Counted from the stretch's first letter, positions 27,268-63,584 are shown. The stretch: DNA of 64,000 bases from a virus (IMGVR_UViG_3300036715_002570:64001-128000); one strand, 5' to 3'. Numbers and translations: made by a program. Notes: generated from the sequence alone by a model not told the origin.

Positions 27268-28032
27268 ATGAGTACACAATGGAATATGGCTTCAGTACGC
27301 CGCCTCGCCGGCCTGCCACTGACAGAAGGTTGGATGCGTGATGACGACGACGATGATGAAGATCCAGACGTCAAGATTGTCAATGCTGACAAGGGCCAAA
27401 CGGCTTTCGAACGCAAGAACAAGAGCCACCTCGATGACAACGCTGAAGCACTGAAGAAACGCACAGCTGAAGTCAAGGCAAAGGCAGCTGAGAAAAAGGC
27501 CGAGAAGAAGGCTGAACCAAAGTCTGAGACCCCTGCAAAGGACAAGACAGAAGAGAAGTCTCCACCTGCTGAAAAGGCTCCTGCTAAGGCTGAGCCAGCC
27601 AAGGAAGAAAAGAAGGTTGAAGCTGCGGCTGAGAAGAAGCGTCGTGGTAAGGCTCCTGATGAGAACAGCAAGTCGGGCCAGATGCGTACGTGGTACAACG
27701 CAAACAAGCCAACACAGCGCAAGCACTTCCTTGCTCATGCAGCAAAGATTGGCATGAGCGCTGCTCAGGCATCAACCTTGCATGCCAAGCTGAATCCAAA
27801 GTCTGGCCGCGAGGTCAAGACCGACGAGTGCTACGTGATTACACACCCGTTCATGCCATCGTTCATGCTTGCAGAAAACCGCGAAATGAACGGTCAAATG
27901 CAGTGGATCGATCCAGCAAGCCCTCTCGATCCATTGGTGTTTGAAACCGCTGAGGAAGCTCAGAAGGTTGTCAAGTACATGGCTGAGTGGAAGGGTCAAA
28001 CATCCAAGGTAACGAAGGTTGTGTTTGACTGA
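27268..28032 (+). CDS. Late, Lys/Glu/Ala-rich protein with a divergent GAxTY-like domain
   Basis: CATAAATA 27233-27240; RRLAGL..LTE; SK..WY..R..F....GMSAAQAST. Confidence 0.65.
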   Translation: MSTQWNMASVRRLAGLPLTEGWMRDDDDDDEDPDVKIVNADKGQTAFERKNKSHLDDNAEALKKRTAEVKAKAAEKKAEKKAEPKSETPAKDKTEEKSPPAEKAPAKAEPAKEEKKVEAAAEKKRRGKAPDENSKSGQMRTWYNANKPTQRKHFLAHAAKIGMSAAQASTLHAKLNPKSGREVKTDECYVITHPFMPSFMLAENREMNGQMQWIDPASPLDPLVFETAEEAQKVVKYMAEWKGQTSKVTKVVFD

Positions 28033-49998: not shown

Positions 49999-50357
49999 GT
50001 CAGTCCCCTGGGTGAGCCGGAACCCCGTCGTGCGGAGCCGGAACCGTAACTACTGTATAACCCGCAATATGATATGTCAACGAATAGTATAGGGGAGCGT
50101 AATCAGTGACGCCCGTAACACCGTACATTCCGCCGGGGAAGTTGTACGCAATTGGTCGTTGCCGGACTGCAACGTGACAGCCCGGATTACCCACATAATC
50201 TGCGGGGAAGCAGTCGTTCTGCACGGGTGTTTACTAGTAGACATTTGAGCAAAAGTGATCACTCAACTCCGCCACATTGTTGCTGATTTTCGCATAATGG
50301 GAACCACACCCAAGGGGAGGTAGTTCGTCATTATTGCGTTATATCCGCGTAATCTAC

Positions 50358-50545
50358 CCGTGGTCTCTGTTGATTAGTGCTGTTTTTAGCCATAATCAAC
50401 ATGATCTACCGGCGGATTATGTGCATAATCAACATGATCTGCACCGTGGTCTCTGTTGATTAGTGCTGTTTTTAGCCATAATCAACATGGTCTGCACCGT
50501 GGTTACTAGTAAACATTGCTGTTTTAGCAACAATCAACACGGTTA
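50358..50545. repeat. ~50-bp direct repeats with internal inverted repeat
   Basis: CCGTGGTCTCTGTTGATTAGTGCTGTTTTTAGCCATAATCAACATG(A/G)TCT at 50358 and 50444, degenerate third copy at 50497. Confidence 0.85.
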
Positions 50546-52869: not shown

Positions 52870-52933
52870 GCTCGTTGTCTTTTACCCCAATATCAACGAT
52901 AGTAGGGGGGCATCCGTTCAAGGAGAAACCGTC

Positions 52934-53440
52934 ATGCAAGGATTCCAACGAGTCACTGACTTTAGCAAGCCGCACTACCTGACGACAAAGGACCGCGTTG
53001 TTCGCGAGTACGAAGGCAAGCCGACGGCGTTCCGCGTGCTGTTCATCCGCAAGGGGCGGGACGGCAAGGGCGAAGCGCTGCTTGGCAGGACCGTTCCCGG
53101 TCAGGCGACGAAGATCATCAAGGTGACGGTGCCGGACGTGATCGATGCGGAAGTCGCCAAGCACGTTGAGGTCTGGCGTCCGACCGGTGAATATGTGCCG
53201 CGTGTCGGTGCGACCGAATATGCGGGCGACGTCGAGCCCGCACGCAAGCGGACGAAGCCAGCGGCGGGCGAGAGCAAGATCGCCAAGTGCAAGGCGTTCT
53301 ACGCCTTGAACAAGACGCTGTCGCGTGATGCGATGCAGACCGCGTTCGTCGAGCAGTTCGGCTGCACCAAGCAGGGCGCCGTGACGTACTTCCTCACCTG
53401 CCAGCGGGAGCTTGGCGAGCTGGAGAAAGCCCCCAGTTGA
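52934..53440 (+). CDS. Early protein with C-terminal GAxTY domain
   Basis: SKIAKCKAFY..R..F...FGCTKQGAVTYF. Confidence 0.7.
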   Translation: MQGFQRVTDFSKPHYLTTKDRVVREYEGKPTAFRVLFIRKGRDGKGEALLGRTVPGQATKIIKVTVPDVIDAEVAKHVEVWRPTGEYVPRVGATEYAGDVEPARKRTKPAAGESKIAKCKAFYALNKTLSRDAMQTAFVEQFGCTKQGAVTYFLTCQRELGELEKAPS

Positions 53441-53493
53441 GGATCGCGGTGATCCAGCGGGATAGTTGGACACCAACCACGAGGAGCGTTCAC

Positions 53494-53808
53494 ATGAACA
53501 TCAACAAGAGCTACACCCGCAGCGTGATGATCGGCCTGCTGCCGAAAGACGCGAACGTTGACGATCTCGACGCGGAAGACGGGCTGCATCTGCAAGCGGA
53601 TGCGCATCAGCGACTGCTGACGGGGCTGAACCACATGGGGTTCGCACCGCTGTCGCCGTTGCACTTCACTGGTGAGATGAAGCCCGAAGTCGAAGCCGGT
53701 CGTTACGGCGACATCGTGCTGCATGCAGCGGGCGTGTTCGGCCTGCGGTTCAGCGTCGATCCGGACGACGAGCACACGTACGTGTGGATCTTCTACGACG
53801 AGCGTTGA
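53494..53808 (+). CDS. Early hypothetical protein
   Basis: GAGGAG RBS. Confidence 0.6.
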   Translation: MNINKSYTRSVMIGLLPKDANVDDLDAEDGLHLQADAHQRLLTGLNHMGFAPLSPLHFTGEMKPEVEAGRYGDIVLHAAGVFGLRFSVDPDDEHTYVWIFYDER

Positions 53809-53833
53809 CCCTAACTACGTTCGCGTGGATACT
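53805..53833 (+). promoter_or_regulatory. Sigma70-like early promoter
   Basis: TTGACC-17-GATACT. Confidence 0.65.
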
Positions 53834-54610
53834 GGACTCACCATCAACCAACGAGGAGCCTCATAGTGGCCAAGACCAACCTGTACACCGTCGACGTTTC
53901 GAAGTACAAAATCGATATCACCAAAATCGAGAAAATCGAAGATGCAGGTGATGACTTCGTCACGCGCGAAGAGCTGATGGAGCTGCTCGGCGGAGACTCG
54001 GAGCGCTTCTATTATGGCTACCCCAAGCGGGCGTGGCGGTATTCGGTGATCTCCAGTGAGGTCGCTGCATGGAAGAGCAAGATCAAGGACGGCAGCAAGT
54101 CGATCATCATCACTGATGATGATGATCGACGCGCTGCAACAAAGCTACTATTCGGTGTCGGACTACGTCCCCGGAACTCAACGCCGTGGCAACAGGCTGT
54201 TCATCCATGCTGATCCTGCAGTTCGCACCGTCGCGACCAAGAAGGACTACGGCCACCTGATCAACCGAATCCAGATGCAACTTAACAAACCGCTGAAGGG
54301 TTCGGCCTGTGTGATCGACATCAAGCACGTTTACGACGATTATGCGGGTGTTTTGCAGCTTCTGCAACGACTGATCAAGTGGGAGGAGATCGAGTGGACG
54401 TTCAACCACTACGGAACGACCATCACGACTGCTCCTGAAGAAGTCGACAGGATGAAGCAGATCTGGGACAACCCCACGATGTTCGACAAGCAGCCGACCA
54501 ACAAAGGCAGCCAATCGTGAGCCTGCCCCTGTTGTCTGTTCACCTTTTCGTTAGATACTGGCTTTGCCAGTTAGGCACCCATCCACAACCTTCACACGAG
54601 GACACATCAA

Positions 54611-55204
54611 ATGAACACGAACCAAAACGGCATGGCCGTCGCCCTGAAGTCGATCGAATCGAACGTCAACGTCGGCATGGACGAAGTCGTCTCGGTGTTC
54701 GTCTCGAAGTACGAGACCAACCTGTTCGACACGAAGGACCAACTGCAGTCGCAGATCAAGGCGGACAAGCGCGAAGCCGACGACCTCGAGAAGGGCCTGA
54801 TCGCTTCGGTCAAGCGCAGCGACTACGAAGCGACGGTGCCCCATCTCGGCCTGACGTTCACCGTCGACGGTGTGACGGTCAACTGGAGCGATGACAGCTA
54901 CCGCACGAGGGGTAAGTCGATCGTCATCGCCATCAAGATGGCCGATCGTGGCGACCGCGACAACCACTCCGCCTACACGAAGTCGATGTTCGTGCCGATC
55001 AACCAGATCGATCTCGACGAGAAGGCGCGTCTGACCGCGCTGATCGCCGATCTCGAGGGCAAGCTGCTCGAGGTGATGGGCAACATCAAGCAAGTCGGTC
55101 GCAAGGAACGGCAGATTCGCGGCAAGATCGCCGAGATGAAGCTGGGTCAGTGCGGCATGGCTGCCCTGCTGCAGAACGAAGAGCTGCTCAAGCTCGTCGG
55201 CTGA
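54611..55204 (+). CDS. Coiled-coil hypothetical protein
   Basis: GAGGA RBS, strong codon bias. Confidence 0.7.
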   Translation: MNTNQNGMAVALKSIESNVNVGMDEVVSVFVSKYETNLFDTKDQLQSQIKADKREADDLEKGLIASVKRSDYEATVPHLGLTFTVDGVTVNWSDDSYRTRGKSIVIAIKMADRGDRDNHSAYTKSMFVPINQIDLDEKARLTALIADLEGKLLEVMGNIKQVGRKERQIRGKIAEMKLGQCGMAALLQNEELLKLVG

Positions 55205-55304
55205 TCAACGGCGACGGTGTGGGGATAACTCCCCACACCAGCAGTGTTGTCAGTAACCGTGGTCTAAAGGATACTGACTTCACTGTAACGAACTGGAGAG
55301 CGAA

Positions 55305-55931
55305 GTGCTCAACGTCAACGTAGCCCTGCGGCACCTGGACATCAACCCGAACAGCGTGATGCGTGCCGTGCAAGAGGTGCGGCTCCACATCGAAGAGCGT
55401 GGGACCGAGCCGTCTGAAGCGATCAGCTTCATGCAGCGGGTGTTCGGCACGGCGCCGTCGTACGCGGAAGTTCACGAGCAGAAGATGTGCTCGCCGTTCG
55501 TCTACGCGGTCACGGTCGCGCAAGCGATGACGGAAGCTGCGATCAAGCAGCATGGGCAGATCGATAACGATACACTGCCGCTGCTGCTCGCGAACGCGAA
55601 AAAGCGGGCGGAAGGCGTGATCATGAAGCCGGAGAACCGCTGCATGTACGCTGAAGCGGAATCGGTCACGGGTGGAAACACTACGTCGGCCGCTGTTGCC
55701 AAGAGCGTCGACACCGTCGTCGAGGTCAAGGCGTCGGGCGAAATCAAGAAGGGCGGAAAGCAGATTCTGGCTGAGGCCCTGTACCGCAAGCACGTTCTCG
55801 ACACACCGTCGCCGTTGACAAACCAAGAATTCATCAAAGTGCTGATCGCAGAAGCACAAATGACGAAGGGTGGAGCAACGACGTATGCGTTCAATCTGAA
55901 GAAGAAGCTGGGCGCTCCGAAGACGGAGTGA
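55305..55931 (+). CDS. Early protein with C-terminal GAxTY domain
   Basis: GKQILAEALY..F...L....MTKGGATTYAFNLKKK. Confidence 0.7.
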   Translation: MLNVNVALRHLDINPNSVMRAVQEVRLHIEERGTEPSEAISFMQRVFGTAPSYAEVHEQKMCSPFVYAVTVAQAMTEAAIKQHGQIDNDTLPLLLANAKKRAEGVIMKPENRCMYAEAESVTGGNTTSAAVAKSVDTVVEVKASGEIKKGGKQILAEALYRKHVLDTPSPLTNQEFIKVLIAEAQMTKGGATTYAFNLKKKLGAPKTE

Positions 55932-56251
55932 CTTGTTGAACTTGGTCGGAAGGTGTTGTATCATCTTCCCACCGCAACCAAGGACCAGTATGCTGCCGAT
56001 TCCGCGAATCCAAGCGATGATCACAATCGTTGAGACGAACCAGATCATGAAGGTGGTGTTCACCAACGTGGGCAACATGATGGACGAGCTGCTGATTGCG
56101 ATCGAGCTCGCATCGATCGCTCTCGGACGCTGGATCGACCCGACCCCGTTCAATGTGCTGCGTGGTGAAGACATCTTCATCTGGTTCCTGTACGAGGGCA
56201 CCAACGAGAAGTACATGACGGTCCTGGGGCATAAGCTCAGCGACTGACTAG

Positions 56252-56280
56252 TTGACCCCAACAGGAGATCGTGGTATGAT
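56252..56280 (+). promoter_or_regulatory. Sigma70-like early promoter
   Basis: TTGACC-17-TATGAT. Confidence 0.7.
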
Positions 56281-56315
56281 CTCCTCTCCACAACCACTCC
56301 CCAAGGAGGAGCACC

Positions 56316-56885
56316 ATGAAGTACACTATCCAGATCGGCGACACCCGCCTGGTCCAAGACGACAACGGCGACGTGTTTGAGTTCACCGCGACGCGCCAAC
56401 TGTCGAGGGAAGAAGCCCAGGCGAAGATCGCCGAACGCGAGCAGGAGTTCCGTGACGAGATCGCTAGCCTGCTCAGCGGGCTCAGCGAGGTCGGCGGGCA
56501 GAGCATGGTTGTGCTCGACACTGCTGCATCCGCCATGGACGGCAGCAACGGCCACCCGCAATGCGCTGTCTGCGGCACACACCACGAGGGCGCTTTCGCC
56601 AGCCTGGACGCCGAGATCGTCACAACGTACCCGGTGACCGAGAGCGTCTGGTTCAACTACCCGAACACCGACGCGCTTGAGGACGACGTCACGCCGAAGC
56701 TGTACTTGACGGAGCGCACCACCGGCCGCGCGATCATCGAAGAAGAGCCTGAGCTGCTGGACTGCTCCGCTGAGCACGAGCACGGCGCGCTGATCCGCAA
56801 GTTTGTGTTCGAGGACGCCACGCCGGCTGAGAAGCCGGTGATGACGATCACGATCCAACCGGTGCCGTACCCGACCGTCCACTGA
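56316..56885 (+). CDS. Acidic hypothetical protein with CxxC
   Basis: AGGAGG RBS; terminator follows. Confidence 0.65.
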   Translation: MKYTIQIGDTRLVQDDNGDVFEFTATRQLSREEAQAKIAEREQEFRDEIASLLSGLSEVGGQSMVVLDTAASAMDGSNGHPQCAVCGTHHEGAFASLDAEIVTTYPVTESVWFNYPNTDALEDDVTPKLYLTERTTGRAIIEEEPELLDCSAEHEHGALIRKFVFEDATPAEKPVMTITIQPVPYPTVH

Positions 56886-57455
56886 CCACCGTCTCCTCGT
56901 TCAGAAGGGCTCTGCTAGCAACGGTAGGGCCCTTCCGCTTTTTGGTCACGAACGGGTAGTTTCACCCTGTTGATCATTACCCTCGACGGTATTAGGATAG
57001 ACCCTGTCGATTGATCAACAACGTCACCTACAGGAGATCAGACGTGAACAAGTCGCACCGTGCCAAGCATGCCCCGCAGCGCAAGAACGACGGCGGTGAT
57101 TCGCGGATGAACCGCCTGGCGAAGGCGGCCCGCAAGGGAACGCTGGCCCGCGTCCGTGAGCGCGAGGCGCAGGAGGGCTGATCACGTCACCCTGTTGATC
57201 CTAGCTCGCAATTGGGTTAGGATCAACTCAACACCTGGAGATCTGAATGGGATTACCGCTATAGGGCTTTGATGTGACATGCGCCCGCCCCGAAGTCACC
57301 CTCGGCTAGAGTTATCTGTGCTGCGGCAGCGCTCAGCAAGTGTGCTGAGACCGCCCGCGATCAGAGAATACGCATGTTAGAGGATTCCGGCGCCGGCCCG
57401 GGCCGGCGCCCCCAGCGCATTCATATCAACAATCCCACCTGGAGGATCCCAGAGC

Positions 57456-57647
57456 ATGAGCAAGAACAGCAAGAACGCCAAGCGCCACATCACTGAGAAG
57501 CAGGCGTCGACCCAGCGCCTCGCTGGCAACAAGGGCCCGTCGAAGACGGCGCCAAAGCACGGCAAGAAGAACGCGTGGTGGCAGAAGTACCTGTCGTACG
57601 CCAGCTACATCAAGGGCGGCAAGAAGGCGGCCAATCAAGACCAGTAG
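57456..57647 (+). CDS. Small basic protein
   Basis: GGAGG RBS; Lys-rich. Confidence 0.5.
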   Translation: MSKNSKNAKRHITEKQASTQRLAGNKGPSKTAPKHGKKNAWWQKYLSYASYIKGGKKAANQDQ

Positions 57648-57736
57648 GCCGCCGCGGCTGAAGCACGAAAAGGACCCATGTGGTTCTTTCGTTGTTTTTG
57701 GGGTACAATTGTTACATCTTTCAACGAGGAGCAACC

Positions 57737-58087
57737 ATGCCCACGAACAAGCTGTTTACGAACATTGACCGGAAGGTGTCCCGCGGCCGCCAGGACGTGA
57801 CGCTGTTGCAGTTCGCAACGGTCGGTGCCCACAAGGTCAGAATCGAGGTCAAGTCGGACTCTTACAAATTCCAATGCTATGCCCACTTATCGGTTCTCGA
57901 TAAGGAAAAGATGGCATGGAACCCCGTGGTGCATATCCCCCATGGTCAGATGCACACCCCTGAGGGCGTGTGCTATCAACCGGATGCCCGTGAGGTCACT
58001 GCCCACAATCAATCTACGCTTGCAGCCAAGTATTTTGGCGCCGACGTCAACGAGCTGATCCGTATCTATAAAGCGTTGATCGACTGA
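57737..58087 (+). CDS. Early hypothetical protein
   Basis: GAGGAG RBS. Confidence 0.6.
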   Translation: MPTNKLFTNIDRKVSRGRQDVTLLQFATVGAHKVRIEVKSDSYKFQCYAHLSVLDKEKMAWNPVVHIPHGQMHTPEGVCYQPDAREVTAHNQSTLAAKYFGADVNELIRIYKALID

Positions 58088-58234
58088 GTGGGTGTTTTCA
58101 CCTCGTGGTGAAAAAAGCATCATCGCCCAGTTGATTCGACCTGCGGTTTCCCTTATAGTTACTTCACTGGATCGAACAACGCAAGCAAGCGACTACGACC
58201 AGCCCTCATCCACCCTCTCCACAGGAGCTGCACC

Positions 58235-58870
58235 ATGTCCAAGAACCTCGCCCCCGCGCAACACGCCGTCGCCCTCGCCATCCTCGCCGCCGTCGGCCGC
58301 GAAGTCCTCGCCACCGAGGAAGGCAACACCCACACGCTCAAGATCACCGGCATCTCGCCCGACCAAGTCGGCTCGATGAAGGACAAGAGCAAGGCTCCGT
58401 ACGCCGTGCTGACCCGCGACGGCGAGGACGGCGGCGAGGCGATCGTCGTCGCCCTGCACCCGAAGAACGCCTCGGCCCTGCTCGAGAAGGGCGAGGACGG
58501 TATCTACAAGCTGGTCGCCGCTGAGGGCACGACCGAGGCCGTCTCGACCTCGGCCGCCGCCGAGCCGACGACCACGGAAGCGTCCGCCGAAGGCACGGCC
58601 GAGGGCAACGCCGAAGCGACCGTCGAGGCCAAGGACAACGTGCCGACCAAGAAGGAAATGGCGATCGACGCCTACATCACGTTGGCCAACGACGGCAAGA
58701 CCCGCGCCGAGATCATCAAGCACTTCGTTGACGTGATCGGCCTGTCCAAGGCGGGCGCCGCCACGTACTACCAGAACTGCCACTCGAACAAGGCGGGCTG
58801 GACCGAAGCGCTCGAGACCTCCAGCGACGCCGCGGGCACTGAGAACGATGCCGAAGCGGACGCGTCCTGA
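58235..58870 (+). CDS. Early protein with GAxTY domain after acidic linker
   Basis: TKKEMAIDAY..R.EII..F...IGLSKAGAATYYQ. Confidence 0.75.
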   Translation: MSKNLAPAQHAVALAILAAVGREVLATEEGNTHTLKITGISPDQVGSMKDKSKAPYAVLTRDGEDGGEAIVVALHPKNASALLEKGEDGIYKLVAAEGTTEAVSTSAAAEPTTTEASAEGTAEGNAEATVEAKDNVPTKKEMAIDAYITLANDGKTRAEIIKHFVDVIGLSKAGAATYYQNCHSNKAGWTEALETSSDAAGTENDAEADAS

Positions 58871-59257
58871 TCGGGCAATGGGGAGCTACGAGCTCCCCCA
58901 CTCCACCCAGAGGGTGGGTAGTCGTGAGGCTACCCACCCTTTCTCCTTTTCATGTGGGCAGATGGCGGAAAGAGCTTATCTGCAACGACGTTATTACTGA
59001 GGATTTCCCATGGACGACCCAGCTGGTCAATGTCTCCTAGACCTCTAGCAGATAAGCGACCATTGAATCAGGAGACTATCGACAGATTACCCTACTGTAT
59101 AGTCCGTTGACATTAGCTGCTTATTCTGGTTGACCGGTTGATCTCAACCCAGTTTACCCTGATAGTAGACCCCAATGCGAACGGAATTCCAGCCGGCGCA
59201 GAAACTTCAACCACAGGGCAGTTTCGCCCAGCTTTCCTTTTACAGGAGCCTTTCATC

Positions 59258-59713
59258 ATGTCGACCACCCAAGCCGTCAACCTGTCCCCCAACGCGATCA
59301 AGATCCTCGGCTACGTCAGCAAGGGCCTGAACACCCGCGAAGCGATCGCCAAGCGCATGAAGACCAGCGTGCCCGTCGTCAACGGCAGCCTGACCGTCCT
59401 GAAGCGCCAGGAGATGGTCACCGTCGACGAAGAAGGCGTGATCACCGCCGTCGAGGGCGCCGCCGTCGTCGCCGAGTCCGCCCACACGCCGCGCTCGCAG
59501 AGCAAGATGGCGCAGGCCCGCAAGCTGTACGCGAAGTACCAGCACAAGGGCCGTCAGGTCGTGCTCGACAAGCTGATCGGCATCGGCCTGACCCCGAAGG
59601 GCGCGTCGACGTACTACCAGACGCTGAAGACGCGCGCCGACGCCGAGGCTGCCGCGCCCGCCGCTCCGGTCGCCCGCAGCCGCAAGTCGCAGGCCGCTGC
59701 CACCCACGCCTGA
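59258..59713 (+). CDS. Winged-HTH-like protein with C-terminal GAxTY domain
   Basis: LS..A.KIL..T.EAIAKRM.TS..VV..SL..L...MV; SKMAQARKLY..GLTPKGASTYYQ. Confidence 0.75.
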   Translation: MSTTQAVNLSPNAIKILGYVSKGLNTREAIAKRMKTSVPVVNGSLTVLKRQEMVTVDEEGVITAVEGAAVVAESAHTPRSQSKMAQARKLYAKYQHKGRQVVLDKLIGIGLTPKGASTYYQTLKTRADAEAAAPAAPVARSRKSQAAATHA

Positions 59714-59863
59714 TCGGGGCGATCTGGGTGCCGCTCTGAGGGCGGCCTCCACTGTTCACTAGTAAACATCTGGTGTAATAGTGGTGGCCGCCCTCTCCGT
59801 TTGCACTGTTGACTAATTAGGGTGAAGGCAGTATCCTGCATCACCACTTCGAGGAGTCAACTG

Positions 59864-60181
59864 ATGCCCAAGAAATTGACCGATGCGGACCGCGTCCGTG
59901 CTGCGATGAAGGCGGCGGGGTTCAAGACGAAAACCCGCGTCGGCGACGTTGCTCTGAAGCGCAACGTCAATGTGTCCGACCGCTCGTGCAACCCGTACAT
60001 CCAGCTGACGCTGCCGCTCGCCGCCGACATCAACAAGGCGCCGCTGGAGCAGCAACATAAGCTCCATGACGAGCTGGTCAAGCAGTTCGGTGATCGGTAC
60101 GCGTTCGGGATGTTCCGCCGTCCGCACCCGCGTCTGTCGACGTACCTGCAGTTCTACGTCACGCGGGAGAAGAAGCAATGA
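59864..60181 (+). CDS. Early hypothetical protein
   Basis: GAGGAG RBS, promoter upstream. Confidence 0.6.
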   Translation: MPKKLTDADRVRAAMKAAGFKTKTRVGDVALKRNVNVSDRSCNPYIQLTLPLAADINKAPLEQQHKLHDELVKQFGDRYAFGMFRRPHPRLSTYLQFYVTREKKQ

Positions 60182-60544
60182 TGTACCAGCACCTGCCCGA
60201 GCGTGTGACGGAGACGGTTCAGCGCCACCCGCAACGTCCGCAGACTCCGACGCAATGGCCTCTCGGCCTGCCCGTCTCTCCTCCTTCGAACAGCAAGGAC
60301 AAGCCTCGTTGGTGAGCGCGCTGCCCACTTGAGGTACGAAGGCTGGTGTGCAAATGTCACCCAGCCTTCTTAAAAAAGTCAACGGCGAAAAACAAACAGG
60401 CGCTCTCGCCGTCCACCCACAGGATGCCTGTTCGACCGCATACCCATTATCACCGCACACTAGAGAAAAGGCAAGCCCCTCCTTAACGGTTGCCAAGTTA
60501 CCCGTGCGGAAGGATACTAAGGCATCGCAATTGAGGAGCCCGCA

Positions 60545-61066
60545 ATGGCCCGCACGCCCAAGCCGCAACCGCTCGTGACCAAGGAAACGCTGCAGCAGAT
60601 GATCCAGCTTGCAGCCAACCGCGCCGAGCAGAAGAAGATCGTTGGCCGCGCGCTCGTCGCGCTGTACCAACGTCAGACGCCGTCGGAACAGTCGTCTGAA
60701 ACGACGAAGGACAGCAACTCGATCGGGTTCTCCAGTGCCGATGCCGACGTCGGCTCCCGCTGCGCGAAGTACTTCCTGCAGCACCAGACGCTGCTCGACT
60801 GGATGTACGGCGTCTGGATGCAAGCCGGTAAGGGCGGCTATCCGCGTATCTGCCGGTACAGCCGCCAGCTGAACGAGATCGCTGAAGAGAAGGCGGCTCG
60901 CAAGCGTACGCTGATGCAGCGCCGCCTGGAGGAGCTGAAGGTGACCTATGGTGAGTGCGTCGACAGCGACGATCCGTCGATCCTCCAGCCGATCGTTGAC
61001 GAAATGCGCTCGCTCGAAGATCGACTGGGTGTTTCGCCCTACATCATCATTGGTGCTGTTGTCTAA
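60545..61066 (+). CDS. Early hypothetical protein
   Basis: GAGGAG RBS, GATACT -10. Confidence 0.65.
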   Translation: MARTPKPQPLVTKETLQQMIQLAANRAEQKKIVGRALVALYQRQTPSEQSSETTKDSNSIGFSSADADVGSRCAKYFLQHQTLLDWMYGVWMQAGKGGYPRICRYSRQLNEIAEEKAARKRTLMQRRLEELKVTYGECVDSDDPSILQPIVDEMRSLEDRLGVSPYIIIGAVV

Positions 61067-62296
61067 ACTGAATAGGTCAGATACGCTCAATCCGTCAACT
61101 GAAAAATTCGCTCAATAAGAGTGGATCTGCTAAGCAGGGCACCCAGCCAGTAAGAGGAGGGTTGGGGCGGATCGGAAGGTTGGCGTATTCCAACCAACCA
61201 GGAGCGAGAATGACCTGTGAAGCAGTCGAAGACACCGTCACCCCGACCGAGAACCTGAAGTCGCCCGTGTTCGCGGCGCTGATGGCCCAGATCATGATGC
61301 CGCAGCAATACGACACGATCATGCAACACGCGCTGGTGTCCGTCAACGCGAAGTGCCCCAGCCGCACTGTGACCATCGACAAGTGAGGAGATCATGAGCA
61401 CCAACTTCGACAACATCGTCCTGATGGGCCAGATCCAACGGATCGCGGAGGCCCACGGTGTCCAAGCAGCCGCTCATGTCGCCGACGACGCTGGCGTCCC
61501 GTTCAAGCAGGCGCACGCGATCCTGCTGCCGTACTGCGCCCGTGGGCGCACGTCGGTCCCGGCCGTTAAGGTGCAGCTGCTGCACTAGGCAGTTGCCAAG
61601 CCAGCAGCCTTTGTGGGATAGTTCCTACATCGGCTGCTGATTGAAGCGCAGCCGAGATGTTCTTCAATCAGCGGGAGCTTGCATGGCAATCATCAAGGAA
61701 GACACTCCGACCACGCTCGGCGTTCAGTTCGTCGTCGAGCTGCAGGTGGCGAACCACATCGACGGCAACTACCTCGACCACGAGATGATGGCCTCTGCGA
61801 TCCACGGTGCGATCCGGTGGATGCTGGATCGCCGTGGATACGCCGGCTGCAAGACGACGGTCGACTCAGTGCAGTACGAAACCGATTACCCAATTGACAA
61901 GGCGGCGGAATGATGAGAGAATTCTTCTACCGCACCGACTGGATCGGTGTTGCGATCGCGTTCGTGATCCTGTCCCTCTTCTTCACCACCGGAGCTGCTC
62001 AATGAAGATCAAGAAAGCCCTCACCCCCTTTGCATACGCCGTCCTGTTCGCGCTTGCGCTCGACGGGTTGATCGTGTGGGCGATCATCGAGGGCTGGGTC
62101 ACCTACACGCAGGCTCACCCGTGAAGGGTTGGCTGGTTGAGCGCCCTGCTCCCAGCCGTTTTTATAACGATGCTCAAGGAGAGCTGAATGAAATGGTTCC
62201 TGCGTCTGTGGTTGATCTGGGCGTGCTTGTGTCTGGTCGGCAGCGGTCTGTGCGTCTACGCGGTGGTGCATTTCATCCAGAAGTTCTGGTGATCCG

Positions 62297-62325
62297 TTGA
62301 CCCTCACCAGGAGTTAGGGTACACT
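62297..62325 (+). promoter_or_regulatory. Sigma70-like early promoter
   Basis: TTGACC-17-TACACT. Confidence 0.65.
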
Positions 62326-62350
62326 ACGTCCATCGTAGTGAGGAATCAAC

Positions 62351-63190
62351 ATGCACCTGACCGCTGAACTGAAGGCTCGTGTCACCGCGAAGATCAAGGA
62401 CGGCATCGCTCGCGCTGAGAAGCGCTACGGCCGCACGTTTCCGATGCCGACGATCGGGTACGACCTGACCGGCCGCGTCGCTGGATACGCGAACTACATC
62501 AAGTGGCACATCCAGCTGAATGCTGACCTGCTGGTTCGCAACGTCGATGATTTCATCGCCCGCACTGTCCCGCATGAGCTTGCGCACTTGATCACCGACC
62601 GGGTGTATCCGGAGAACCACCGGAACAAGGGGATCACGATCACCCGCACCGGCCGCGTCAAGCGTGAGAAGCGAGACATCCACGGGACTGACTGGCAGAG
62701 CGTCTGCCTGGTGCTCGGGATGACCGATGTCACCCGCTGCCACAGCTACGACACGACTGAGACCAAGCGCGTTACGTCGCGTAGCCGGACGGTCGAATGG
62801 CAATGCCCGTGCGGTGCCAAGCTGATGCTGTCGCCGAAGATATCGGCAGAACTTGCAATCAACCCAGACTCGCGCTGGCACAAGTCGTGCCGGTGCCGTC
62901 GCCTGTTCCGTGCAGGTACCCAGCCCGCACCGACCTCGAACACGACGGTGCATGTTCGCCCGCAGCCGGCTCCGATTCTCCTGCCGAAGCCGACCCCGAC
63001 GCCTGTGCTGTGCACCGCTGCAGCGGTGCAACAGGGCGCCAGCAAGATCGATGTCTGCTCTGCGCTGTACAAGGCTGCGCCTGTGGGTACGTCGCGCACC
63101 GCGATGATCGCACTGTTCGTCGCCAATGCGAACTGCACCCCCACGGGCGCGGCGACGTACTACCAGACGCTGAAGAAGAAGTTCAGTTGA
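62351..63190 (+). CDS. SprT-like zinc metalloprotease with C-terminal GAxTY domain
   Basis: AGYA, LN..L, TVPHELAH, HGTDW, CH, C.C; Pro-rich linker; GAATYYQ. Confidence 0.85.
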   Translation: MHLTAELKARVTAKIKDGIARAEKRYGRTFPMPTIGYDLTGRVAGYANYIKWHIQLNADLLVRNVDDFIARTVPHELAHLITDRVYPENHRNKGITITRTGRVKREKRDIHGTDWQSVCLVLGMTDVTRCHSYDTTETKRVTSRSRTVEWQCPCGAKLMLSPKISAELAINPDSRWHKSCRCRRLFRAGTQPAPTSNTTVHVRPQPAPILLPKPTPTPVLCTAAAVQQGASKIDVCSALYKAAPVGTSRTAMIALFVANANCTPTGAATYYQTLKKKFS

Positions 63191-63335: not shown

Positions 63336-63584
63336 ATGTCTGGATACGCTGGGGTTGATGATGATGCCCTACACGCGTTGATTCTCGCTGAAAACGGAAT
63401 CAACGCGGCCAAATCAATGGTCGACGGACCTTCCCTGTCTGAATGTTTGGACTGTGGAGAATCGATCACTCCGAAACGGATCCAAGCACTTGCAACGATC
63501 GGGATGCGGTGCATGTATTGCATTGACTGTCAACCGAAACACGACAAGCCGGGCGGCATCAAGATGCTCGATCGGATCCTGTGA
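63336..63584 (+). CDS. DksA/TraR C4 zinc-finger protein
   Basis: CLDCGESI..KR..A....CIDCQ. Confidence 0.8.
   Translation: MSGYAGVDDDALHALILAENGINAAKSMVDGPSLSECLDCGESITPKRIQALATIGMRCMYCIDCQPKHDKPGGIKMLDRIL

Follow-up and report, generated by a model that had tools for sequence, protein, structure and literature searches.

A C-terminal three-helix domain shared by early-type proteins of a large T4-like phage, and its possible role as a nucleic-acid tether

Why should several small phage proteins with unrelated N-termini all end in the same short segment? The question is raised by the stretch IMGVR_UViG_3300036715_002570:64001-128000 (the window, that is, the whole 64,000-nucleotide piece of viral DNA analysed here, from whose first letter all positions are counted), and in particular by its interval 52934-63190. 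There a reading of the sequence alone (the original prediction) had noticed five open reading frames (ORFs) sharing an unrecognised C-terminal domain of about 50 amino acids, with a divergent copy in a distant sixth ORF, and had proposed that this domain, which we call the tag domain, is a helix-turn-helix (HTH)-like address module delivering different effectors to one target. Here we ask whether the copies are related, how widely the domain occurs and with which partners, and what it may bind.

All six ORFs are present on the plus strand (Table 1), and we refer to each protein by the first nucleotide of its gene. Hidden Markov models (HMMs) built from four of the five clustered copies and searched against the whole 150.7-kb genome, translated into 3004 six-frame ORFs, recovered the omitted copy as the top match outside the training set in every run (E values between 1.6e-15 and 3.9e-5), and no further strong copy was found among these ORFs. 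The K, the G-A and the T-Y positions are invariant in the alignment of the five copies. The C-terminal segments of about 50 amino acids in the five proteins are homologous, as had been claimed. From the consensus proposed for them the 55305 copy departs in having T at the position given as R, and the low-complexity linker said to precede each copy is clear in 58235 and 62351 and merely short or basic in the others.

An exhaustive HMMER search against 1.84 billion representative proteins yielded 1608 cluster representatives at E <= 1e-3, of which 114 reach E <= 1e-10, and a sample of 167 proteins with 234 domain instances was retrieved. The domain measures 46-50 residues and follows the signature K-x3-[AC]-x2-[LI]-[YF] ... 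[RK]-x2-[IVM]-I-x2-F-[VI]-x3-G-h-[TS]-x2-G-A-x-T-Y-[YF]-x3-K-K, with column conservation of 100% for K3, 94% for A/C7, 96% for Y/F11, 92% for R/K20, 97% for T/S34, 91% for G37, 96% for A38, 95% for T40, 97% for Y41, 92% for Y/F42 and about 75% for K46 and K47; helix 3 is conserved on both of its faces throughout the family. The domain is basic, with a mean net charge of +3.4 and 93% of the 234 instances positive, and the parts attached to it average +0.4 per 50 residues. Its last copy lies 15 amino acids or fewer from the C-terminus in 150 of the 167 proteins, two or three tandem copies occur in 63, and 24 are made of the domain only. An AT-hook-like RGRP is found just upstream of the second copy in a tandem subfamily belonging to one lineage, which accounts for 12 of the 13 occurrences of the motif; with an R-G-R-P core adjoining 12 of the 234 instances, all in this subfamily, the domain is not an AT-hook family.

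The domain appears to be restricted to phages. Absence from cellular genomes is suggested as well: when a stand-alone member was searched for in 185,579 genomes of bacteria and archaea, in a scan that sees close relatives only, 59 pattern matches came up and 0 of them were confirmed. The five-copy profile detected no copy at E <= 1 in T4, Vibrio phage VAP7 or Ruegeria phage RpAliso, and tblastn of a tandem-domain protein against phages matched a single record, Vibrio phage Bakedbeans (PQ768826.1), a 155-kb phage in culture whose host is Vibrio campbellii BB120. Bakedbeans has five copies (gp4, gp65, gp94, gp180 and gp186), dispersed along the genome; every one forms the very C-terminus of its protein, behind an N-terminus unrelated to any in the window. 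All five proteins are annotated 'hypothetical protein', none has a Pfam match, and gp180 contains hardly anything besides the domain. The gp94 gene adjoins an AP2-domain gene. Four copies within 18 kb, a SprT fusion among them, occur on another IMG/VR contig.

Less firm than the five clustered copies is the sixth, inside 27268. It gives E values of 0.045-1.9 with the five-copy profile, 0.009 among the 3004 ORFs with the 234-instance family profile (which includes the five clustered copies), and a best value of 3e-8 in phmmer searches against the 167 family proteins, where the alignment reaches into the motif ahead of the domain (RRGKAPDENS against RGRPADENS). We regard it as a probable divergent member that has lost the TY pair, TL standing in its place.

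Modelled in isolation by AlphaFold2 (AF2), the domain gave a predicted local distance difference test score (pLDDT) of 94.6, with helices at residues 3-13, 20-31 and 35-49 and a three-residue turn between the second and the third, and the same unit is present in the model of the full-length 55305 protein (pLDDT 92.4). In the predicted structure the three helices pack as a right-handed bundle whose spacing is canonical for helix-turn-helix, that is, a tri-helical HTH fold of the kind first proposed, and a putative resemblance to HTH structures is seen in superpositions over 46-50 residues at about 2-3 A. Foldseek found no match at E <= 0.001 in the Protein Data Bank (PDB) for either the domain or the full-length 55305 model, and the domain profile gave only chance matches among PDB sequences (designed repeats, a coat protein). 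Structural neighbours include the three-helix protein-binding units of RecX, PqqD, ScpB and the cullin WHB, the RecX three-helix repeats being among the closest known systems. Matches in the ESM Atlas were only to unnamed viral clusters (scores 0.80-0.83), and those in BFVD to uncharacterised proteins of Rhizobium, Agrobacterium, Morganella, Acinetobacter and uncultured phages (TM-score about 0.85).

The claim that the domain is unrecognised was borne out. Over the domain, no Pfam family reached its gathering threshold, whether in the proteins of the window or in the 146 relatives scanned. The best scores in the relatives, in bits, were those of WH_Rok (PF23159, 22.7 against 27.6), HTH_10 (PF04967, 21.4 against 23.1), GerE (PF00196, 19.6 against 23.5) and DUF7726 (PF24852, 19.6 against 26), each of these four in one or two of the 146 members, with Sigma70_r4_2 (PF08281) likewise under its threshold; the window proteins have no such match. 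No family in NCBIfam or PHROGs covers the domain, and literature searches found no description of it. It is an unnamed sequence family inside a very well-known fold class, put to unusual use as a C-terminal tag on many effectors. With the HTH families (LuxR/GerE, sigma-70 region 4, HTH_10, Rok winged helix, homeodomain-like) it appears to share the three helices, the G-h-[ST] turn between helices 2 and 3, and a third helix with small residues at positions 4-5, an aromatic residue at 8 and a basic C-terminal end; the sub-threshold Pfam matches fall on its HTH segment. Unlike them, it opens helix 1 with the invariant K, carries the G-A-x-T-Y-Y signature and is nearly always a C-terminal appendage or part of a tandem array.

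BLAST clustering of the non-domain parts of the 167 proteins separated about 50 partner classes, including those like 55305 (42 proteins, the commonest class, often with two or three tandem copies), SprT (36), 52934 (14), 59258 (5), the Alt-like ADP-ribosyltransferases (ARTs; 3) and 58235 (2); Pfam identified SprT-like in 33 and ADPrib_exo_Tox in 3 of the 146 relatives. A 689-amino-acid relative (L007:4976-7045, IMGVR_UViG_3300033233_000212) combines Phage_Mu_F (residues 165-286), the tag domain (305-353, 64 bits) and a HEFGH metallopeptidase whose resemblance to the ATLF family stays sub-threshold. This protein and the 600-840-amino-acid ARTs are the relatives in which an architecture of polyvalent type occurs; the proteins of the window are small, with a single effector each, and are not polyvalent proteins in the sense of several effector domains in one large polypeptide. 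The three ARTs (P0074, P0101 and P0149) carry, besides two canonical copies, several degenerate three-helix repeats without G-A-x-T-Y, which shows that decay can turn the domain into spacers no longer recognisable as such. The idea of an address module gains indirect support from the roughly 50 partner modules, from the five different N-termini of Bakedbeans and from the conserved faces of helix 3.

Taking these results together, we consider it probable that the tag domain is a nucleic-acid tether, most likely for double-stranded DNA (dsDNA), appended to changing early or injected effectors and comparable in function to ArdC-N. Binding to nucleic acid is argued for by the fold class together with the positive charge, by the conserved basic residues that open helices 1 and 2 and end helix 3, by the AT-hook-like RGRP of the tandem, domain-only subfamily in one lineage, and by the set of partners (SprT-type proteases, zincins, ARTs and MuF). 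In complexes with DNA, HTH proteins touch the backbone where helices 1 and 2 start and where helix 3 ends. We propose that the domain would bind nucleic acid, probably dsDNA without strong sequence preference, so that its partners would be held there, with helix 3 (T-x-x-G-A-x-T-Y-Y-Q-N-x-K-K) as the contact helix and the invariant Lys opening helix 1 and the Arg opening helix 2 making backbone contacts. In this manner T4-like and jumbo phages may concentrate on DNA a changing set of early or injected proteins, among them a SprT-type metalloprotease, an Alt-like ADP-ribosyltransferase, a MuF-linked metallopeptidase, a winged-HTH (wHTH) protein and many unassigned modules. A common ligand seems preferable to many operators because the whole of helix 3 is conserved family-wide, which lends the single target first proposed some indirect support. 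The bolder form of this proposal, in which the domain is a portable, phage-only 'DNA-tether tag' put on any effector acting at the genome or nucleoid, and one ligand organises a changing takeover or anti-defence toolkit, we hold only tentatively and regard as doubtful.

Known systems offer partial parallels to such a tether. Injected polyvalent proteins are organised around the hub domains MPTase, ART and MuF and have the single-stranded DNA (ssDNA)-binding ArdC-N as a 'header' (PMC5512222), and ArdC is an ssDNA-binding metalloprotease that overcomes restriction (PMC7213743). As with ArdC-N and its zincin, a small module, here a putative nucleic-acid binder, is linked in invading DNA elements with metallopeptidases of the SprT/ArdC type, with ARTs and with MuF-type proteins, and the coupling of effectors to incoming DNA proposed for ArdC-N may by analogy apply to the tag domain. 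ArdC-N differs in being an N-terminal alpha/beta nested-hairpin fold that binds ssDNA, whereas the tag domain is all-helical, C-terminal and mostly found on small single-effector proteins. SprT, Spartan and Wss1 are DNA-dependent metalloproteases in which the protease is coupled to DNA-binding modules (PMC9240642, PMC6945406), and cleavage of host proteins has been proposed for the SprT-like peptidases of jumbo phages (PMC7824862). Protein 62351 shares with this group the SprT-like domain, the HExxH motif and a zinc ribbon; bacterial SprT, in contrast, has no such C-terminal extension, and the module added in 62351 is the tag domain rather than the ZBD or BR of Spartan. Judging from its family, the fusion may cleave DNA-bound proteins. 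AT-hook and small basic nucleoid-associated proteins resemble the tandem domain-only members, which are strongly basic and carry RGRP between their two copies; the five clustered proteins of the window differ from them in having no RGRP, and the sixth has a degenerate RRGKAP.

The common ligand may, however, equally be a conserved protein. The domain would then be a protein-protein adaptor, docking its partners on one host or phage protein such as RNA polymerase, a nucleoid protein, the replisome or a portal or head component, a reading which we think unlikely. Both faces of helix 3 and the 100% invariant Lys are kept across phages of unrelated hosts, which is unusual for a sequence-specific HTH; the protein-binding units RecX, PqqD, ScpB and cullin WHB stand among the structural neighbours; and Alt-like ARTs target RNA polymerase in T4 (PMC7824862). 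The positive charge, the AT-hook-like motif, the tandem domain-only proteins and partners such as a DNA-dependent-type protease and a wHTH, however, all fit nucleic-acid binding more simply, and no candidate protein partner emerged. Of lower probability is a tag for packaging and injection, which would bind the genome or a component of the head interior so that its partners are encapsidated and ejected with the DNA, like T4 Alt and the MuF-type polyvalent proteins. The position of the domain directly after Phage_Mu_F in the 689-amino-acid metallopeptidase protein, its presence in the large Alt-like ARTs, the late-promoter-like CATAAATAC upstream of the gene of the sixth copy, and the use of MuF, MPTase and ART hubs in polyvalent virion proteins (PMC5512222) are all consistent with this. 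The five clustered genes, however, belong to a run of small genes on one strand and are each preceded by a sigma-70-like promoter, as is typical of early and not of virion genes, and most family members are small (100-280 amino acids) and free of virion domains.

An ordinary transcription-factor HTH, in which each copy reads its own operator and the shared motif reflects common descent only, we consider very unlikely. The fold with its canonical spacing, some variation among the five paralogues at the outward-facing positions of helix 3, and the fusion of one copy to a (sub-threshold) wHTH agree with a regulator, but fusions to proteases, ARTs and virion proteins are atypical of specific regulators, as are extreme C-terminal placement, tandem arrays and a conserved recognition helix. 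Chance or compositional similarity, arising from low-complexity linkers and a short motif, has practically no probability left. Pairwise comparisons of single sequences among the five (phmmer) are mostly weak, with E values from 1e-5 to above 1, yet the leave-one-out profiles, the 1608 relatives in the database and the confidence of both AF2 models refute it.

More than 1600 protein clusters share the domain, almost all of them labelled 'hypothetical', and giving it a name would bring annotation to some of the dark matter in large lytic phages. If the tag domain is indeed a DNA tether, or a tag for one partner, every protein carrying it would be flagged as acting at that site, and the domain would offer a cheap route to new phage effectors (proteases, ADP-ribosyltransferases and about 50 unassigned modules) and, for the DNA case, a marker of those directed to DNA. 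The tether idea also supplies a hypothesis for the role of phage SprT-like proteases. A new kind of biology would follow only from the common-target model. Bakedbeans, being cultured and having five copies, makes the domain experimentally accessible.

Table 1. Tag-domain proteins, promoter-like sites and motif copies in the window
Feature	Position	Strand	Basis
168-aa protein: beta-rich N-terminal module aa 1-112 (no assigned function), tag domain aa 113-161 (nt 53270-53416)	52934..53440	+	leave-one-out E 1.3e-10
208-aa protein: seven-helix N-domain aa 1-115, linker, beta-hairpin 127-141, tag domain aa 150-203 (nt 55752-55913)	55305..55931	+	leave-one-out E 3.9e-5
211-aa protein: unassigned N-terminal module, acidic A/E/T-rich linker, tag domain aa 138-187 (nt 58646-58795), acidic tail	58235..58870	+	leave-one-out E 1.5e-9
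151-aa protein: probable MarR/ArsR-like winged HTH aa ~8-80, tag domain aa 81-128 (nt 59498-59641)	59258..59713	+	leave-one-out E 6.4e-6
279-aa protein: SprT-like zinc metalloprotease, P/T-rich linker, tag domain aa 230-279 (nt 63038-63187)	62351..63190	+	leave-one-out E 1.6e-15
254-aa protein: internal, probable divergent tag copy aa 133-180 (nt 27664-27807), followed by ~70-aa C-terminal part	27268..28032	+	family HMM and phmmer
Promoter-like TTGTCT-N17-GATAGT, upstream of 52934	52875..52903	+	TTGNCN-N17-GATANT pattern
Promoter-like TTGTCA-N17-GATACT, upstream of 55305	55247..55275	+	TTGNCN-N17-GATANT pattern and sigma-70-like search
Promoter-like TTGATT-N17-TATAGT, upstream of 58235	58131..58159	+	sigma-70-like search
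Promoter-like TTGATC-N17-GATAGT, upstream of 59258	59138..59166	+	read directly in sequence
Promoter-like TTGACC-N17-TACACT, upstream of 62351	62297..62325	+	sigma-70-like search
TTGNCN-N17-GATANT sites	33587, 34019, 43977, 52875, 53805, 55247, 60490	+	pattern search of window
TTGNCN-N17-GATANT sites	32451, 60474	-	pattern search of window
TGTTTACTAGTAAACA, palindromic form	50228-50243, 50500-50515, 59753-59768		motif search
ACTAGTAAACA, half form	28164, 32955, 63730, 63764		motif search
ATAAATAC, late-promoter-like sites	14373, 19969 (-), 27234, 30172		pattern search

The N-termini of the five clustered proteins are unrelated, as predicted, and of the two identities proposed for them SprT was confirmed and winged HTH stays below threshold. 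Protein 62351 shows a HELAH motif and a CxC...CxC zinc ribbon (CPCG...CRCR) in its translation and belongs to the Pfam family SprT-like (PF10263, E = 8.2e-11, 42.2 bits against a cut-off of 25.6). Because its score against NCBIfam PRK04860 (E = 1.4e-25, 89.8 bits) falls under the equivalog cut-off of 175, we read it as a member of the SprT-like family and not as an orthologue of E. coli SprT. The N-terminus of 59258, a protein of net charge +8 whose ATG is preceded by AGGAG, gave Pfam matches to CggR_N, wHTH-PRTase_assc and MarR_2 at E values of 1e-3 to 1e-2 (at best 19 bits against cut-offs of 27-30), a best NCBIfam score of 16.3 against a cut-off of 115, and PDB ZitR at E = 0.13; a resemblance to MarR/ArsR-type winged HTH is plausible, with membership below every cut-off.

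The other three N-terminal modules have no assignment. That of 52934, whose architecture has 14 orthologous instances among the 167 family proteins, matched nothing in Pfam or PHROG; in the ESM Atlas its only structural leads, to beta folds of the S24/S26-like and other kinds, were weak (TM-score <= 0.51). For the seven-helix domain of 55305 no fold match was found. The tag domain of 58235 is 86% identical to that of its orthologue P0027. In 27268, an acidic run, a K/E/A-rich stretch and the RRGKAPDENS motif lie ahead of the divergent copy; along nucleotides 27268-27660 one reads seven consecutive acidic residues and then, up to the domain, a low-complexity stretch of some 70 residues rich in K/E/A/P.

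The five paralogues are 24-41% identical to one another and 64-86% identical to their counterparts in other phages. A recent duplication in this genome was rejected, since identity to other phages exceeds identity to the neighbours. Each of the five architectures is, from these comparisons, an old and separately conserved gene family, and the suggestion that the five genes form one 'system' was not upheld.

The window is part (bases 64001-128000) of a linear 150,677-bp IMG/VR viral contig (GC 52%, CheckV completeness 64%) whose source is a large T4-like phage. Among its products are a major capsid protein of T4 type (Pfam Gp23, E = 3e-45) and a protein like rIIA. No close relative of this phage was found among 50,697 phage records, against which megablast of the region gave no match. 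The proteins of the window are recorded on 6 contigs, the longest of 206,473 bp, and because they occur on this last one the true genome is probably larger than the record, above 200 kb. The region at 52-64 kb holds small genes only, every one on the plus strand, and is enriched in sigma-70-like promoter matches (16 found, 3.8 +/- 2.0 expected). Each of the five clustered genes has one such site closely upstream, and the label of 'early genes' given to them is reasonable on sequence grounds, sigma-70-like promoters being expected of early genes. They appear to be separately promoted early genes, neither one operon nor one machine. TTGNCN-N17-GATANT, a phage-specific promoter-like form, has 9 matches against 0.39 expected. 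The heptamer TTTACCC is present in several of the spacers of these sites.

There are 4 copies of ATAAATAC, a sequence like the T4 late promoter TATAAATA, where 0.58 would be expected, and two of these sites lie some 25-35 nucleotides upstream of ATG codons at 27268 and 30206; the CATAAATAC ahead of gene 27268 stands about 30 nucleotides upstream of it. A further motif, ACTAGTAAACA, has 10 matches against 0.47 expected and is often found as the 16-bp palindrome TGTTTACTAGTAAACA. Its copy at 59753-59768 occupies the loop of a GC-rich hairpin of about 15 bp (59737-59797), immediately upstream of a TTGACT-N17-TATCCT promoter, and this location in a hairpin loop beside a promoter points to a transcription signal. 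Nothing connects this motif with the tag domain. Just downstream of the last clustered gene, an 82-amino-acid ORF (63336-63584) with two CxxC pairs (CLDCG ... CMYCIDC) resembles by eye a TraR/DksA-type zinc finger.

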